Source: Enterobacteria phage JenP2
DNA length: 59,802 bases
Sequence record: NC_028997.1
Direction: 5' to 3' (one strand)
Positions within the stretch are counted from its first letter, which is position 1. Each line of letters starts with the position of its first letter. Shown here one piece after another: positions 4,806 to 59,434 of the stretch. The notes under the pieces were generated by a model. The model did not search any database. It was given only the letters and a program-made list of their open reading frames with translations, and was not told the DNA's origin. The position numbers were made by a program, and so were the translations under genes.

Positions 4806-5909
4806 ATGTCTAAAATTCTGTCAGCTCCGATGCTTAATTTGCGAGCTACCAATTCAATTCTTCTGTCTGCTGTTCGTCGTGGTGCAATCACTCAACTTGC
4901 AGATGTTATCGTTCCAGAGATCTTCGTACCGTATGTGCAGAACCGCACAACTGAAAAGTCCCGACTGATTCAGTCTGGTGCTATTGAGATTTCTGAGCGT
5001 CTTAACGCCGCATTGATGGGTGAAGGTACTACCTTTAACCAGCGTTTCTTCAAAGACCTGGATCGTGACGAAGAAAACGTTTCAAGTGCAAGCGATTCAA
5101 CCGATTCTACTCCTGGTGGTATCAAATCCGGGCGTGAAATTCAGATCCGTCTGTCCCGTAACCATTCATGGGGTTCTGCGGACCTGCTGGACAGCTTGAT
5201 CTCCCCTGACCCGCTGGATGCTATCATTAATCTAGTGGCAAGCTACCGTCAGAGCCGTCTGCAACGTGCATTCGTTGCAACTGTCGGTGGTGTGTTCGCC
5301 ATGAACGCCGCTGCTCCGACTGGTTCCGGTGATAAGAAGTCTACCCATGTTCAGAACGATATGACCCACGATATCTCTGGTTCATCCTTCGTTGATGGTG
5401 TGACTAACTTCAACCCGGCTGGTGTTATCCTGGCTGCTGGTACTATGGGCGACTCCCTGAACGACCTGTCCATGATGATGGTACACAGTGTGGTTTACCA
5501 GCGTATGCAGCTCATGAACCTGATCGACTTCATCCCGGATGCCCGTGCTGAAGTAATGATCCCGACTTACATGGGCCGTGAAGTTATCGTTGATGATATG
5601 ATGCCTCACGACAACGGTAAGTACGAAACCTGGCTGGTCGGTCGTGGTGCGTTCCAGTTAGGTGTTGGTTCACCGAAAGTTCCTGTTGAAACTGACCGTA
5701 AACCTGCATCCTACAAAGGTGGTGGTTCTGAAATCCTGTATCACCGCTGGGAAAACATCATTCACCCTGTCGGTCACGCATGGGTTGGTACTGCCGCTGA
5801 AGGTGGCCCGGATAACGCCGCTCTGAAGACTGCTACTAACTGGGCTCGTGTATTCCCTGAGCGTAAACAGATTAAGATTGCTCGCCTGATCACTCGCGAA
5901 CACGCTTAA
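4806..5909 (+). CDS. major capsid protein
   Basis: 367 aa from the ATG at 4806 (GGAGA SD upstream); the track start at 4674 would read through the upstream hairpin. Position after the scaffold and a strong terminator downstream fit a highly expressed capsid gene. Confidence 0.8.
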   Translation: MSKILSAPMLNLRATNSILLSAVRRGAITQLADVIVPEIFVPYVQNRTTEKSRLIQSGAIEISERLNAALMGEGTTFNQRFFKDLDRDEENVSSASDSTDSTPGGIKSGREIQIRLSRNHSWGSADLLDSLISPDPLDAIINLVASYRQSRLQRAFVATVGGVFAMNAAAPTGSGDKKSTHVQNDMTHDISGSSFVDGVTNFNPAGVILAAGTMGDSLNDLSMMMVHSVVYQRMQLMNLIDFIPDARAEVMIPTYMGREVIVDDMMPHDNGKYETWLVGRGAFQLGVGSPKVPVETDRKPASYKGGGSEILYHRWENIIHPVGHAWVGTAAEGGPDNAALKTATNWARVFPERKQIKIARLITREHA

Positions 5910-54691: not shown

Positions 54692-54880
54692 AATGCAATC
54701 TCCCTTCGGGTGAGGCGGGCGCGGAACCCGTGTCCCGCTTAAAAACCCCCTTAACCCTACGCAGTTATAGTATGACAACGGGGTATCAGATGCAACTATT
54801 ATCTGCATTATTTTAGAACTTTTTTAGTTGTGTTTCATAATAATAACATCCGGGACTACACGGTAGATGGTGTGCCGGAA

Positions 54881-54945
54881 ATACCAGGTAGCGCGAGCGT
54901 GTCGAACATACCAGGTAACAGCACACGCCGAACATACCAGGTAGC
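54881..54945. repeat. three tandem 26-27 bp direct repeats (iteron-like)
   Basis: Core ATACCAGGTA(G/A)C at ~54881, ~54908 and ~54934 within a ~490-bp non-coding region between divergent gene blocks. Confidence 0.6.
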
Positions 54946-55296
54946 ACATACATAGACAGCATATAGTGGGCAGGTGGATAGTAACAGATGTAATTATACT
55001 GGACTGTACAGTATAGTCATGTAATAGATAGCATACTAATCAAATAAAAAATAATAACGCGTGTAATAATAAACAACGTTACAGTAGAGCGCGCAACAGT
55101 CACATGACGTAACAATCACCTCACTGACGATCACGGGACGTTATAGTAACGCCGCGGGGCGGCTCTTAGATCTCTGCCAAGGATTCATCGTTTGTAGATT
55201 ATCTCGTCGCTAGACACTTTATATCCTCACCTCACCTGCCCTATATTGTTCGTATAAAGTTAATTCTGTATGTAAATACTCGAGAGGAGATCTGTT

Positions 55297-55584: not shown

Positions 55585-55669
55585 TGTGGTCACTAATTGT
55601 TGCGGCCGGCTATGTTAATCAACTTGCGTATCCTGTTATAGTTATTCCGTTAACGTTAAAGGGGGTTAT

Positions 55670-56035
55670 ATGAACGAGAATATAGTTAAAGCCTGGTCTA
55701 TCTTACGACCACAGTTGAAAGACGATCGTGTCGCTTTTGTTTTATGTCCTGCCAACGAATATCGCCGGAAGCTCGAAGAAGTGTTGCGCGAAGATCCTGA
55801 GTTCGTTCGCTGTGTGCAACTGTCGCGCGAGTCATCTGTTGTACAGTTTGATCGATTTCATCTTCGTTTGGTTTCTCATCACAGAGCCTCGTATGAAGAC
55901 ACTGTTATTCGTACGAGTGGGTTCCATTGTGATATTGCAATCCTTGACTGCAAATTGGACATTGGGCAGAAACAAGATTTATATAATCTCGCTCATGAAC
56001 GTCACGGTGAACTGTTAATTGTGGAAGTACAATAA
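55670..56035 (+). CDS. hypothetical protein
   Basis: 121-aa ORF. Confidence 0.45.
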   Translation: MNENIVKAWSILRPQLKDDRVAFVLCPANEYRRKLEEVLREDPEFVRCVQLSRESSVVQFDRFHLRLVSHHRASYEDTVIRTSGFHCDIAILDCKLDIGQKQDLYNLAHERHGELLIVEVQ

Positions 56036-56373
56036 TGGCTAAAGATATCGTTATTCCGAAAATGTATTGCCAGCTCCGTGATACTTTATTACAGAGCGGT
56101 TGGATTATTAGTCACAGCGATGTAAATGACACTTATATTGTTCTTATACCACCTGAAGGAACAATATCTTGTATTCTGCATTATATGCCTGAAGCGAAGA
56201 CGGTTTATCCGAACGGGTCGTTCTTGCTTCGTCTGCGCTCCGATACATGGAAGATCCAGACGGATACCTGTGCAATTGACGAGAATACCAGTAAAGAGTT
56301 TATTCGCAAGCTAACTCAGCTGAATAAAATCTACGAGCATGTTAAATTTGATTTGTTTAAGGAAGTCTTCTAA
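56035..56373 (+). CDS. hypothetical protein
   Basis: 112-aa ORF; overlapping start and stop with neighbours. Confidence 0.45.
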   Translation: MAKDIVIPKMYCQLRDTLLQSGWIISHSDVNDTYIVLIPPEGTISCILHYMPEAKTVYPNGSFLLRLRSDTWKIQTDTCAIDENTSKEFIRKLTQLNKIYEHVKFDLFKEVF

Positions 56374-56813
56374 TGCTTACTGTTAATGACCGCATCACCC
56401 ATAAAACTCAACCGACAATGATGTCTTGCATGGCAGCCTGTCTGGCTATGCTTCTTGACAGGGATGTTGAAGAAGTTGACAACGAATTCAGCTTAGACTA
56501 CGTTCGTGGGTATATTGACGTCGCCAGTTATCTTTATAGACAAGGTATCTTTGCACAGCCACATATCACTGCCGGTATGCACCAAATATATCCAGGGCGC
56601 TTATATCTTGCTACTGTACCTTCTTTGCAGTTACCTGGGCTTTTCCATCAGATCATTATTGACGCTCGTTTTGACGGTGTAACCGTATACGATCCAGCTA
56701 AAGGTCTGGAAGGGAAACAATATTATTCCTATGACCACATTGCAGAAGAAAATGAGCTGGCGTATCCTTTGCGGTCTTTCTTGATTGATTACGAAATTAT
56801 ATTACCGGAGTGA
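56373..56813 (+). CDS. putative papain-like cysteine peptidase (C39-like)
   Basis: 146 aa; Gln about 6 residues before a Cys in QPTMMSCMAACLAML, and a downstream HQIIIDARFDG His/Asp pair, consistent with a papain-like catalytic arrangement (motif-level inference). Confidence 0.4.
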   Translation: MLTVNDRITHKTQPTMMSCMAACLAMLLDRDVEEVDNEFSLDYVRGYIDVASYLYRQGIFAQPHITAGMHQIYPGRLYLATVPSLQLPGLFHQIIIDARFDGVTVYDPAKGLEGKQYYSYDHIAEENELAYPLRSFLIDYEIILPE

Positions 56814-56816
56814 TTC

Positions 56817-57170
56817 ATGAGCTTGCAACGTTTTGACAATGCAGAACTCGCGTGTGAATTTGCAAAGCGCAAGTTCGCTAAAACAGGTACGCCGCGATGC
56901 GTGCACGCGGCTATTGGGCAAAATGGGGCAAAGTATTGGTACGTTGGTACAGTAGCTCAGATCAAGCGAAGATTCGCGACTACGCTCGAAATGCGCCGGC
57001 TTGGGTCCCCTACACTTGTACGAAACAGGCACTTGGATAAAGAGGAAATTTATCAATTTCTCAGAAATTACACTGGTAAAGAGAATAGATTTCAGGTTGC
57101 AGCGAAAGAGTTTAATATTGGTCTTTCCACTGCTTATAAAATTTATCACATATATGGGCGTTTAATATGA
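56817..57170 (+). CDS. putative DNA-binding protein (C-terminal HTH)
   Basis: 117 aa; C-terminal FQVAAKEFNIGLSTAYKIY resembles a helix-turn-helix. Confidence 0.45.
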   Translation: MSLQRFDNAELACEFAKRKFAKTGTPRCVHAAIGQNGAKYWYVGTVAQIKRRFATTLEMRRLGSPTLVRNRHLDKEEIYQFLRNYTGKENRFQVAAKEFNIGLSTAYKIYHIYGRLI

Positions 57171-57661
57171 CCGCAATTGCTTATCGTAATGGGATATTAG
57201 CTGTAGATCGACAGGTTACATGGGGTAATATTGCAACGACTACGAATAAAGTTCATACTATCAGTATTCCAGGGATTGGTCTGTGTCTTGTTGCCATGTC
57301 TGGTAAACTACGTGCTGTAGATGACATTGTAGAACATTTACAAACTACGTCACGTGGACGCAAAGAACCTTTCTCAGATTTAAATCCAGATTCGCGTTAT
57401 GGTATTGCTGTGACGCAGGAACTTGTCGTGTACCCCATCTATGGTGATGGTAAATTAGGTCTACCGGACACTAACGAATTTATTGCGGAGGGTAGTGCGT
57501 TTGAGTTCTTGATGGGTACAATGGCGGCAGGTTGCAGTGCGGAAGATGCTGTGCAATTGGCGTGTGTATATTGCGATAGCTGTGGTCAGGGTGTCAACTT
57601 CTATGACGTAGCTTATACTCTGAAAATGGCGCAGTGTAAACCCGAGGAGGAACCATTTTGA
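57167..57661 (+). CDS. HslV/proteasome-beta-like Ntn hydrolase
   Basis: 164 aa; N-terminus MTAIAYRNGILAVDRQVTWGN parallels the recalled E. coli HslV [24 protein letters not shown], with Thr at position 2; Lys about 28. Confidence 0.5.
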   Translation: MTAIAYRNGILAVDRQVTWGNIATTTNKVHTISIPGIGLCLVAMSGKLRAVDDIVEHLQTTSRGRKEPFSDLNPDSRYGIAVTQELVVYPIYGDGKLGLPDTNEFIAEGSAFEFLMGTMAAGCSAEDAVQLACVYCDSCGQGVNFYDVAYTLKMAQCKPEEEPF

Positions 57662-57849
57662 AGAAGCCTAAGACTGGTCTGTTCCTTTGTGTTGGTGGAC
57701 CTTTTGACGGTAAGCGTATACGCTTAACAACATCAGATTTGTATCCAAGTTCCTCCGTTTTCTCTGTTCCATCCTATAAAAATGGTGAGAAGGGGAAATA
57801 CGTCTACAATGATGAAATTCGAAATAGTGTAATCTGGAGAACATCGTGA
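57658..57849 (+). CDS. hypothetical protein
   Basis: 63-aa ORF overlapping the upstream stop. Confidence 0.35.
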   Translation: MKKPKTGLFLCVGGPFDGKRIRLTTSDLYPSSSVFSVPSYKNGEKGKYVYNDEIRNSVIWRTS

Positions 57850-58073
57850 GTGATCCTACAAATGCGCAATTAGCGGCTGCTAGAGTGTATATGCGCGGAG
57901 CTGCCGCTGAGATTGAGGCCTTGCCACAATTTGAAAAGCATGTACAGCAACTTGAACATAAATTTAAGGCTCTTAAAGATCTAGGGGATAAGAAGGACGC
58001 TATAGCATTTCTTCTTGCTCTTCAATATTTTGTTATGGGGTCTGATGAGAAACTATGTTCCTTAGAAGAATAA
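57846..58073 (+). CDS. hypothetical protein
   Basis: 75-aa ORF. Confidence 0.4.
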   Translation: MSDPTNAQLAAARVYMRGAAAEIEALPQFEKHVQQLEHKFKALKDLGDKKDAIAFLLALQYFVMGSDEKLCSLEE

Positions 58074-58555
58074 TTAGTATGGTTGCACCTTGGCTACCAC
58101 TTGTCATAATTGTTATTCTAGCCAACTGGGCTTATGACAATGCTATAGAATCAGCTAGAAAGGAGGGTTTCGATGCCGGTGTGTCGTACCAAAAAGAAAC
58201 TCAGAAAGCGGTTGATTTCGAGGAGGAGAAACGAAGAGCATATGAGAAAGACGCTATCGAACGTCAGTACCAATCTCGCATTGAGTCTTTGGTTGCCGAT
58301 CTTAATAATTATCGCGCTACTAATGACAGGTTGCACAACGAAATCGCAACCGTCCGTAAGTACCTCGGTGACGCTACCGGCCCTCAGCCCGACAGCAAGA
58401 CAACCGCCCAGATCGCCCGTGTGCTCACCGAGCTGTATTCAGAAAGCGTCACAGAATACAGACAAGTGGCAGAAGAGGCTGAAAAGTATCGTGTTGCCGG
58501 CGAGCAGTGCGAACTACAGTATGATGCAATGCGAAATCCGCGTAAAGAAAGGTGA
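58055..58555 (+). CDS. i-spanin (Rz-like)
   Basis: 166 aa; N-terminal transmembrane helix (VAPWLPLVIIVILANWAY) followed by a charged coiled-coil periplasmic domain; contains the o-spanin ORF in another frame. Confidence 0.6.
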   Translation: MFLRRIISMVAPWLPLVIIVILANWAYDNAIESARKEGFDAGVSYQKETQKAVDFEEEKRRAYEKDAIERQYQSRIESLVADLNNYRATNDRLHNEIATVRKYLGDATGPQPDSKTTAQIARVLTELYSESVTEYRQVAEEAEKYRVAGEQCELQYDAMRNPRKER

Positions 58556-58586
58556 TAAACTGCAAAGTCCTTGCTGGATTGCGTAA
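58242..58586 (+). CDS. o-spanin (Rz1-like lipoprotein), overlapping the i-spanin
   Basis: Frame within the i-spanin gene; signal peptide with lipobox LLMTGC, Pro-rich mature region; extends 31 nt beyond the i-spanin stop. Start assigned to the Met of MRKTLSN. Confidence 0.55.
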   Translation: MRKTLSNVSTNLALSLWLPILIIIALLMTGCTTKSQPSVSTSVTLPALSPTARQPPRSPVCSPSCIQKASQNTDKWQKRLKSIVLPASSANYSMMQCEIRVKKGDKLQSPCWIA

Positions 58587-58677
58587 CTAAACGTTCAGTC
58601 TTAATTGCACATAATTGATTGTGTGCATGTGATAATTCAACTATGCTCTATTCGGTTTAACTGAATGGAGCTTTTTT

Positions 58678-59112
58678 ATGACTGTGCAACCACGAGGCAT
58701 CCGGAATAACAATCCAGGAAATATTCGTTGGGGTGATAACTGGAAAGGTCTTGTTCCAGAAAACAAACGAACTGACCGTTCTTTTTGTCAGTTTATCGAT
58801 GTAAAATACGGTATTCGCGCCATTGCGCGTATTCTACTAAACTACCGCAACCGCGAAGGGATGAAGCGTGTCGGCAATAAAGGGATTGACACTGTACGGG
58901 AAATTATTTCGCGCTGGGCTCCGCCGAATGAAAATAATACTGAAGCCTATATTCAATCCGTGTCTAAGGCTTGTGGTGTTGGTGCAGAACAGCCGATTTC
59001 ATTGACCGATGATAAAATCATGCTTGCGATCGTGAAAGCGATTATCAGACATGAGAACGGTGTGCAACCTTATTCCGATAAAGATTTGCTCGCGGGTATC
59101 CACATGGCATAG
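58678..59112 (+). CDS. hypothetical soluble protein, candidate endolysin (positional)
   Basis: 144 aa; between spanins and holin; conserved-looking NNNPGNIRWGDNWKG segment; no catalytic family confidently recognised. Confidence 0.35.
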   Translation: MTVQPRGIRNNNPGNIRWGDNWKGLVPENKRTDRSFCQFIDVKYGIRAIARILLNYRNREGMKRVGNKGIDTVREIISRWAPPNENNTEAYIQSVSKACGVGAEQPISLTDDKIMLAIVKAIIRHENGVQPYSDKDLLAGIHMA

Positions 59113-59125
59113 TAAGAGGTTATAA

Positions 59126-59434
59126 GTGTCGCCGAACTGGGATTGGAATATAGTCTTTATTCTCACTGCCATTGCGATGGTAGGGGGTTCCCTTGGCTAC
59201 GCTGCAAGAACCCATGATGCTAAAGAAAGGTTCAGACTCAGTGTCTTCATTCAAGAGGGTGCTTTTTCTGCATTCTTTGGTTTCTTGATAGGTGTAATTA
59301 ACGTGGAACATGGTGTCTCACTGGGGCTCAGTGGGGCGTTCATAGGTGTGCTATCTTGGTCAGGTTCAAGAACCATGCTAAAGTTTCTACGGAGAAAAAC
59401 GGAAGCATGTGACCGAGAAAAGGAAAGAGGTTGA
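59126..59434 (+). CDS. holin (three transmembrane segments)
   Basis: 102 aa; three hydrophobic helices and a highly charged C-terminus (RRKTEACDREKERG). Confidence 0.55.
   Translation: MSPNWDWNIVFILTAIAMVGGSLGYAARTHDAKERFRLSVFIQEGAFSAFFGFLIGVINVEHGVSLGLSGAFIGVLSWSGSRTMLKFLRRKTEACDREKERG

Follow-up and report, generated by a model that had tools for sequence, protein, structure and literature searches.

A PPH-type proteasome homologue and a C39-like cysteine peptidase encoded by probably independent neighbouring genes in a Nonagvirus genome

Our studies concern three genes of Enterobacteria phage JenP2 (NC_028997.1); the whole stretch of 59,802 nucleotides that was analysed is referred to here as the window. 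Bases 55600-59200 of the window share 91-96% nucleotide identity with 16 Nonagvirus (9g-like, Queuovirinae) genomes from phages of E. coli and Salmonella, and JenK1 equals the window in length and layout; the window thus reads as a Nonagvirus genome. From position 1, the + strand carries packaging and structural genes; the genes for replication and 7-deazaguanine modification are on the - strand, and the end of the window carries a final + strand run. Within that run, a first-pass annotation made from the sequence had proposed an early-gene trio consisting of a papain-like cysteine peptidase, a helix-turn-helix (HTH) protein and an HslV-like N-terminal nucleophile (Ntn) hydrolase. Three open reading frames (ORFs) of 146, 117 and 164 amino acids (aa) do lie on the + strand where it placed them, and our analysis leads us to describe them as follows.

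56373..56813, + strand: standalone C39-like cysteine peptidase, 146 aa, with predicted Gln13 (oxyanion hole), Cys19, His92 and Asp107; PHROG 4049
56817..57170, + strand: 117-aa protein confined to Nonagvirus, with a possible helix-turn-helix near its C-terminus (~residues 91-113); phrog_17085
57167..57661, + strand: PPH-type mini proteasome homologue (MEROPS T1-type Ntn threonine peptidase), 164 aa; phrog_1040

The 164-aa protein starts with MTAIAYRNGILAVDRQVTWGN (MTAIAYRNG...), as had been claimed, and its structure model (pLDDT 89.5) bears out the predicted proteasome/HslV-type fold, in which the catalytic Thr immediately follows the initiator Met. The T1 core, which has the proteasome-type Ntn alpha-beta-beta-alpha arrangement, comprises residues 1-147, and the ~15 extra residues at the C-terminus are modelled poorly (pLDDT 46). 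Asp14, Lys28, Gly46 and Ser110 are the counterparts of proteasome Asp17, Lys33, Gly47 and Ser129, and Ser110 aligns with the serine of the 'IGSG' of HslV. A word-indexed search returned close relatives only (at least 45% identical), in all of which M1, T2, D14, Q16, K28, G46, G109 and S110 are invariant. An exhaustive profile search gave a family of 3,656 cluster representatives at E<=1e-3, 336 of them at E<=1e-10. The 147 best representatives have a median length of 150 aa, and all but 16 of them (131) start with Met-Thr. A divergent alignment of 133 representatives, pairwise less than 50% identical, was used to assess conservation. Thr2 is present in 127 of them (the other six have Ser), Asp14 in 129, Lys28 and Gly46 in 132 each, and Gly109 in all 133. 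This near-invariance indicates that the catalytic centre is active.

Profile comparisons also connected the family to known structures. When a profile of 125 members was run against the PDB, it matched HslV (5e-10), beta8 (3e-9), beta5 (~7e-9) and BPH (3e-8), and 42 of the 125 members individually matched Pfam Proteasome (PF00227). Profiles from narrow alignments gave little against the PDB: PPH reached HslV weakly, at an E-value of ~0.08, and three others returned nothing significant. Similarly, a narrow PPH alignment compared with E. coli HslV alone (hhalign) aligned over the C-terminal half with 20% probability. Taken together, the broad comparisons identify the 164-aa protein as a homologue of the proteasome/HslV (T1) family.

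The label "HslV-like" was borne out as far as the T1 Ntn fold and the catalytic Thr, but not for HslV proper, as the protein lies at equal distance from HslV, BPH and proteasome beta and has no helix H2. In common with HslV it has the Ntn fold and a Thr after Met, accompanied by equivalents of Asp17, Lys33, Gly45-47 and Ser124. In contrast to HslV (ClpQ), it lacks the full set of helices H1-H4. A single helix follows strand 6 (residues 48-58), and a confidently modelled loop (residues 59-76) runs where T1 proteins carry H2. Relative to HslV of E. coli MG1655, ~20 residues are deleted at the H2 position and nine more in the H3/H4 helix region. Further, the protein is no nearer to HslV than to other T1 clades, curated HslV and Proteasome models were not matched by it, and no HslU gene lies alongside. 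BPH and Anbu differ from it as well: they have the complete set of four helices, measure 185-230 aa, are chromosomally encoded and have no known unfoldase. Anbu genes share a conserved operon with genes for ATP-grasp and transglutaminase-like proteins, and no operon of this type was seen at the window locus.

A better match is PPH, a family that a 2021 study presented as typical of tailed phages (Fuchs et al. 2021, PMC8665760). In that work, PPH was placed in group I together with HslV, BPH, AAH and CPH, and was reported as a protein of ~140 residues from Caudovirales and prophage regions, with no propeptide, no informative gene context and no AAA+ partner. The absence of H2 was described there as peculiar to the PPH and RPC branches. 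We placed the window protein by comparing it with the features given there for PPH (representative WP_042125023.1). The window protein is compact, with a T1 core of 147 residues and neither propeptide nor insertions, it lacks H2 while keeping the catalytic triad and Gly47, and its family is carried by tailed phages of Proteobacteria and by prophage regions. Since all of the features that were checked are present, we regard 57167-57661 as a PPH, a compact phage-borne T1 branch and not HslV proper. The published PPH and the window protein are thus alike in their T1-type fold of ~140-165 aa, their equivalents of Thr1, Asp17, Lys33 and Gly47, and the lack of a linked AAA+ ATPase. They differ in the ~15 additional C-terminal residues of the window protein and in its lineage-specific C39-like neighbour, which was not reported by Fuchs et al. 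Longer C-terminal extensions, of at least 100 residues, occur in some PPH homologues (275-308 aa in total), such as those of Aeromonas phage 4L372XY (locus L166, 4001-4828) and of locus L028 (5001-5927), and P0086 (263 aa) is likewise extended.

A tblastn search located PPH in 75 phage records: those of Queuovirinae, of Yokohamavirus PEi21, of phages of Aeromonas and Erythrobacter, and of Machinavirus-type jumbo phages, which carry it as gene 1. All of the hosts are Proteobacteria (Escherichia, Erwinia, Klebsiella, Salmonella, Aeromonas and others). A link of PPH to the 7-deazaguanine DNA-modification genes was considered and rejected, since the PPH gene is no part of that cluster and is also carried by phages beyond Queuovirinae. 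In the GenBank record of the type phage 9g (KJ419279; locus L017, 3246-3740, corresponding to window 57167-57661), a 1-nt deletion changes CATTTACAAACT to CATCTA-AAACT. The deletion frameshifts the PPH gene past ~residue 58, and the depositors annotated an 84-aa fragment only. This could be either a sequencing error or a sign that PPH is dispensable in the laboratory.

In the case of the 146-aa protein, the first-pass annotation had noted Gln13-x5-Cys19 followed by His92 and Asp97 or Asp107, and these residues are present as described. Its model likewise agrees with the papain-like fold (clan CA) that had been predicted, and the Gln/Cys/His/Asp set is conserved. We aligned 23 sequences from phage genomes and 80 viral contigs that share 28-48% identity with the window protein. 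Gln13, Cys19, Ala25, Ser84, His92, Asp107, Pro108 and Tyr118 are invariant among the 23, and Asp97 is not conserved. Gln stands six residues ahead of Cys, and Asp, in a D-P-x-x-G motif, 15 residues past His; this follows the pattern of C39 domains, in which Gln precedes Cys and His and Asp are ~15-16 residues apart. Structural comparison pointed the same way: the fold is closest to C39, with cytoplasmic C39 leader peptidases as the top matches, and the BFVD matches were uncharacterised phage proteins and one "Peptidase C39 domain" protein. The double-glycine protease LahT gave a sub-threshold alignment by hidden Markov model (HMM), with Q, C, H and D all in register, and 4 of the 23 relatives gave weak Pfam Peptidase_C39 matches (best E 0.0028). 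Based on these observations, "papain-like" is right and "C39-like" is more precise.

The protein nevertheless differs from known C39 domains in several respects. The leader peptidase domains of PCAT1, LahT and ComA are part of PCAT/AMS ABC transporters, whereas the window protein is standalone and predicted to be cytoplasmic. We found neither a transporter in the JenK1 annotation nor a convincing Gly-Gly leader among the neighbouring ORFs, and a double-glycine leader substrate was not identified. It also forms its own phage family (phrog_4049) and does not reach the Pfam threshold for PF03412 or C39_2. The 63-aa ORF after PPH (MKKPKTGLFLCVGG, then PFDG...) was considered as a double-glycine leader substrate and rejected by eye, its leader being too short and lacking the usual hydrophobic/acidic pattern. 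AvrRpt2 (family C70), the name given to this gene in one public record, shares the clan CA fold and Cys/His/Asp catalysis, and was rejected as an identity since it is not the closest relative by structure or by sequence. A pseudo-enzyme reading of both peptidases was set aside, as their near-invariant catalytic residues speak against it.

The third member of the trio is of a different kind. A small protein does lie between the peptidases, but its HTH character is plausible only. The Pfam matches are sub-threshold (HTH_7 at E 0.05-0.09, HTH_23 at E 0.16-0.19) and appear in two of nine members, and its profile matched nothing in the PDB. By eye, the C-terminal stretch AAKEFNIGLSTAYKIY plausibly resembles a resolvase-type HTH. 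All homologues of the gene are at least 74% identical, which confines it to Nonagvirus. In the corresponding place, a 61-aa gene is found in Seurat and two genes, of 124 and 61 aa, in yong3, and nothing is present in EC151 or in a metagenomic relative (L014). Since the middle gene is replaced or absent in relatives, the trio is not a conserved unit, and the gene is no conserved partner of the two peptidases.

We then consider whether the two peptidase genes belong together. The cysteine peptidase was found by tblastn in 138 records, spanning Queuovirinae, Kuttervirus, 93-kb Pseudomonas phages, and Vibrio and Shewanella phages. For PPH, 40 diverse viral loci on contigs outside Queuovirinae were gathered with a motif-selected sub-alignment, and the loci were scanned with HMMs of both families. 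No cysteine peptidase gene lies within 5 kb of PPH at any of these 40 loci. Conversely, a PPH gene lies within 4 kb at 23 of 80 cysteine-peptidase loci and is absent from the other 57. Nineteen of the 23 show the Queuovirinae-type adjacency, and the remaining four belong to two other clusters in which PPH is 3.7-4 kb downstream. In a second lineage (the L101/L102-type cluster), a survey of 10-kb flanks found PPH at three of 18 loci, at varying distance and on either side, and none at 15. There, the C39-like and PPH genes seem to be optional cargo of a shared variable region. At all Queuovirinae-type loci examined (Nonagvirus, Seuratvirus, EC151 and metagenomic relatives), the pair stands side by side. 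The adjacency is therefore confined to Queuovirinae-type phages and is essentially one inherited arrangement. As a single inherited arrangement, it provides no independent evidence of a functional link.

In Salmonella phage Maynard (Kuttervirus; locus L008, 3986-4435), a C39-like homologue with 40% identity lies between the genes for the topoisomerase II subunits and overlaps both of them. These flanking genes are T4 gp39-like and gp52-like, a DNA-metabolism context unlike that of the window.

Based on these observations, we conclude, at a probability of about 80%, that the window encodes a PPH and a C39-like cysteine peptidase whose genes are independent of each other, accessory neighbours in this phage lineage. 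The middle gene would then be a genus-specific small gene that was inserted between them.

Several points weigh against this conclusion. Within Queuovirinae the adjacency persists down to ~30-37% protein identity, with stop and start codons sometimes overlapping, and in three of the 18 second-lineage loci (L147, L149 and L164, on contigs of 34-92 kb) both genes are 2-5 kb apart on the same strand. The two peptidases may therefore be functionally linked within Queuovirinae phages. With regard to the identities, direct searches of the three proteins against Pfam, NCBIfam, PADLOC and PDB sequences gave no significant match, so that family membership at the sequence level is transitive, through profiles or relatives. 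Ser110 is kept in 97 of the 133 PPH representatives (73%), and the C39 link of the cysteine peptidase is sub-significant at the sequence level. Further, our literature search found no experimental follow-up on any PPH or on this cysteine peptidase family; for phage HslV-like proteins, phage C39 anti-defence proteases and PPH experiments, it returned only Fuchs et al. 2021 and plain annotations, and a coliphage proteomics study that we consulted does not include Seuratvirus virions.

With this in mind, we can propose how the two enzymes might act. Host methionine aminopeptidase would strip Met1 from PPH and expose Thr2 as the N-terminal nucleophile. The alpha-amino group of the Thr would serve as the base and its hydroxyl as the nucleophile, with Lys28 and Asp14 assisting and the Gly46 backbone forming the oxyanion hole. 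PPH would then cleave peptide bonds, most likely as a homo-oligomer without a dedicated ATPase. The cysteine peptidase would be a cytoplasmic C39-like endopeptidase with the triad Cys19/His92/Asp107 and Gln13 in its oxyanion hole. By analogy with C39 domains, it would most likely cut site-specifically after small residues (Gly-Gly-type) in a single phage or host protein or in a few of them, and would not degrade proteins in bulk. The middle protein may bind DNA, outside any conserved unit. We are far less sure of the substrates and oligomeric state proposed here than of the identities of the two peptidases and the independence of their genes.

A different role for PPH would be that of a late protease of the morphogenesis or packaging stage, non-canonical and capsid-maturing, scaffold-removing or packaged in the virion, in phages that have no classical prohead protease. 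We consider this unlikely, though gene context hints at it. At no fewer than 17 of the 40 diverse PPH loci, a gene for the terminase large subunit (TerL) or the portal lies on the same strand within 3.5 kb, and PPH directly flanks one of them at ~10 of these: between TerL and portal (L040, L043), right after portal (L049, L065) or right after TerL (L036, L053). The identities of the neighbours were verified by Pfam or PHROGs for six neighbour clusters. Three head modules that could be resolved run from portal through scaffold to major capsid protein and lack a canonical protease, as does that of Nonagvirus. There, PPH falls within the region predicted to be late, and the small terminase gene follows ~2.2 kb downstream. 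However, terminase and portal are among the hallmark genes by which IMG/VR contigs are recognised, which inflates proximity on short contigs, and phages with a separate scaffold usually need no protease. In the complete genomes of Machinavirus (240 kb), Erythrobacter (150 kb) and Aeromonas (124 kb) phages, PPH lies amid hypothetical and auxiliary genes, while the 43-kb PEi21 has it between tail and tail-fibre genes; it adjoins terminase or portal in none of the four. The 9g frameshift, if real, would also make PPH dispensable for virion production. If a morphogenesis role were true, PPH would represent a fourth, Ntn-type class of phage head/packaging-stage protease, and in Queuovirinae it could act alongside its C39-like neighbour. 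As an observation on position, PPH stands against TerL or portal, including just before TerL, around position 5000 of loci L036, L040, L043, L049, L053, L056, L057, L062 and L065.

The first-pass annotation had inferred a proteolytic module that could target host defence or regulatory proteins. On this reading the cysteine peptidase, HTH protein and Ntn hydrolase would work as one, for example as a cascade under its own regulator, with one peptidase activating or feeding the other. The constant side-by-side arrangement in Queuovirinae, with some pairs abutting or overlapping, and the second-lineage loci that carry both genes within 2-5 kb are what such a module would have in its favour. Against it stand the many loci described above at which either peptidase gene occurs without the other, and synteny within one subfamily counts as a single evolutionary observation. 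Moreover, the cysteine peptidase gene lies amid DNA-metabolism genes in Kuttervirus, pVco-14 and S0112, and the HTH gene is genus-specific. A cascade would also find no propeptide to cut in PPH, where the Thr directly follows Met, and PADLOC gave no match. Such a module is, in our estimation, quite improbable.

It had also been suggested that the Ntn protein could work with host HslU. It would then replace HslV, dock on HslU and steer ATP-dependent proteolysis towards substrates chosen by the phage. E. coli does encode HslU, and the JenK1 annotation contains no phage-encoded (AAA+) unfoldase. In HslUV structures, the apical helices H1 and H2 take part in the contact with HslU. Docking is doubtful for PPH, in which ~20 residues of HslV helix H2 are absent; NCBIfam models were unmatched, and Fuchs et al. 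(PMC8665760) reported no AAA+ partner for PPH. We therefore hold out little prospect for HslU docking.

A lysis accessory, in which the cysteine peptidase would be a cell-wall or Lpp-link peptidase freed through the holin like CHAP/NlpC-type lysins, is very unlikely: its gene does lie in the unit just upstream of spanin, endolysin and holin, and there are weak Foldseek matches to phage endolysins, but the best structural matches are cytoplasmic C39 leader peptidases, homologues in other phages lie away from lysis genes (between the topoisomerase II subunit genes of Kuttervirus, and beside resolvase and ligase in pVco-14), and the 146-aa single-domain protein has no evident signal peptide or wall-binding domain.

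Neither peptidase is new to public annotation, and PPH is already in the literature; both are thus a known kind of feature. RefSeq names the 164-aa gene "peptidase HslV family" in JenK1, JenP1, 9g and SE1, and also in Seurat and CAjan, and the same name is given to phrog_1040, while phrog_4049 is listed as of unknown function. In the ESCO3 record, the 164-aa gene appears as "proteasome subunit alpha type-2" and the 146-aa gene as "papain-like cysteine protease (AvrRpt2)". The view that HslV homologues are unusual in siphoviruses could not be upheld, given these RefSeq names, the 3,656 cluster representatives and the 2021 description of PPH. What is gained is a more exact naming: "peptidase HslV family" (RefSeq, PHROGs) and "proteasome subunit alpha type-2" (ESCO3) become PPH, and the "papain-like/AvrRpt2" gene becomes C39-like. 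Both families are large and phage-borne, with strongly conserved catalytic residues, and PPH is the sole proteasome-family branch that is regarded as genuinely viral. Nonagvirus phages, which grow on E. coli K-12 hosts and are represented in the BASEL collection, offer a convenient system in which to learn the roles of these enzymes.

The surroundings of the three genes bear on when they might be expressed, and the relevant features are given below.

54809..55296, strand not applicable: intergenic region between the leftward replication genes and the rightward run
55670..56373, + strand: two ORFs of 121 aa and 112 aa, upstream and in the same orientation, function unassigned; phrog_17838 and phrog_21152
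57658..58073, + strand: two small ORFs (63 aa and 75 aa) whose start/stop codons overlap those of their neighbours, bridging the PPH gene to the spanin gene
58055..59434, + strand: lysis cassette directly downstream of the small ORFs (Pfam DUF2514, PHROG 312/873, public annotations), made up of the four features that follow
58055-58555, + strand: Rz-like spanin
58645-58677: hairpin and T-run, terminator-like
58678-59112, + strand: endolysin
59126-59434, + strand: holin

The run from 55670 to 58555 is tightly packed, with successive ORF spacings of -1, -1, +3, -4, -4, -4 and -19 nt, and the terminase genes come after the holin in circular order. We take all three genes to be co-transcribed, in a rightward unit that leads on into lysis and packaging. 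In the 9g paper (PMC4276943), two divergent promoters were predicted in the intergenic region equivalent to window 54809..55296; early/middle functions were assigned to the leftward half, and the half with the peptidase genes was described as encoding "late morphogenetic and lysis proteins". The 9g GenBank record marks BPROM promoters. The label "early" given to the trio is unsupported rather than disproved; the genes head a rightward run into spanin, endolysin, holin and terminase, and the 9g paper predicts late expression. Overall, neither a three-gene module nor early expression nor HslU hijacking gained support from our analysis.

A hairpin with a 12-bp stem, GCTCTATTCGGTT-TAA-CTGAATGGAGC, followed by T6, abuts the ATG of the endolysin gene (window 58645-58677). 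Its 3' arm includes the GGAG Shine-Dalgarno sequence of the endolysin gene, and it is 100% identical in eight other Nonagvirus loci, where the flanking DNA is 91-96% identical. It could act as a terminator, setting the promoter-proximal genes apart from those for endolysin, holin and terminase, or it could lock the translation of endolysin, or do both. Since the hairpin could stop a promoter-proximal transcript 5' of the endolysin gene, early or middle expression of the peptidase segment is possible.

Three of the neighbouring ORFs deserve a brief description. The 121-aa ORF at 55670-56035 heads the packed run, and a note in the 9g GenBank record calls it a "potential sigma factor"; it is probably the putative regulator "g70" of the 9g paper, and it had no match in Pfam, NCBIfam or PADLOC. 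Directly 5' of the cysteine peptidase gene, the 112-aa ORF at 56035-56373 gave a weak PADLOC match to RmrT (E 0.0086, 14 bits), which is probably due to chance. Finally, an ORF at 58173-58586 is embedded in the +1 frame within the spanin gene (58055-58555). It probably encodes the o-spanin (Rz1 type), and an o-spanin is annotated at this embedded site in some BASEL records.

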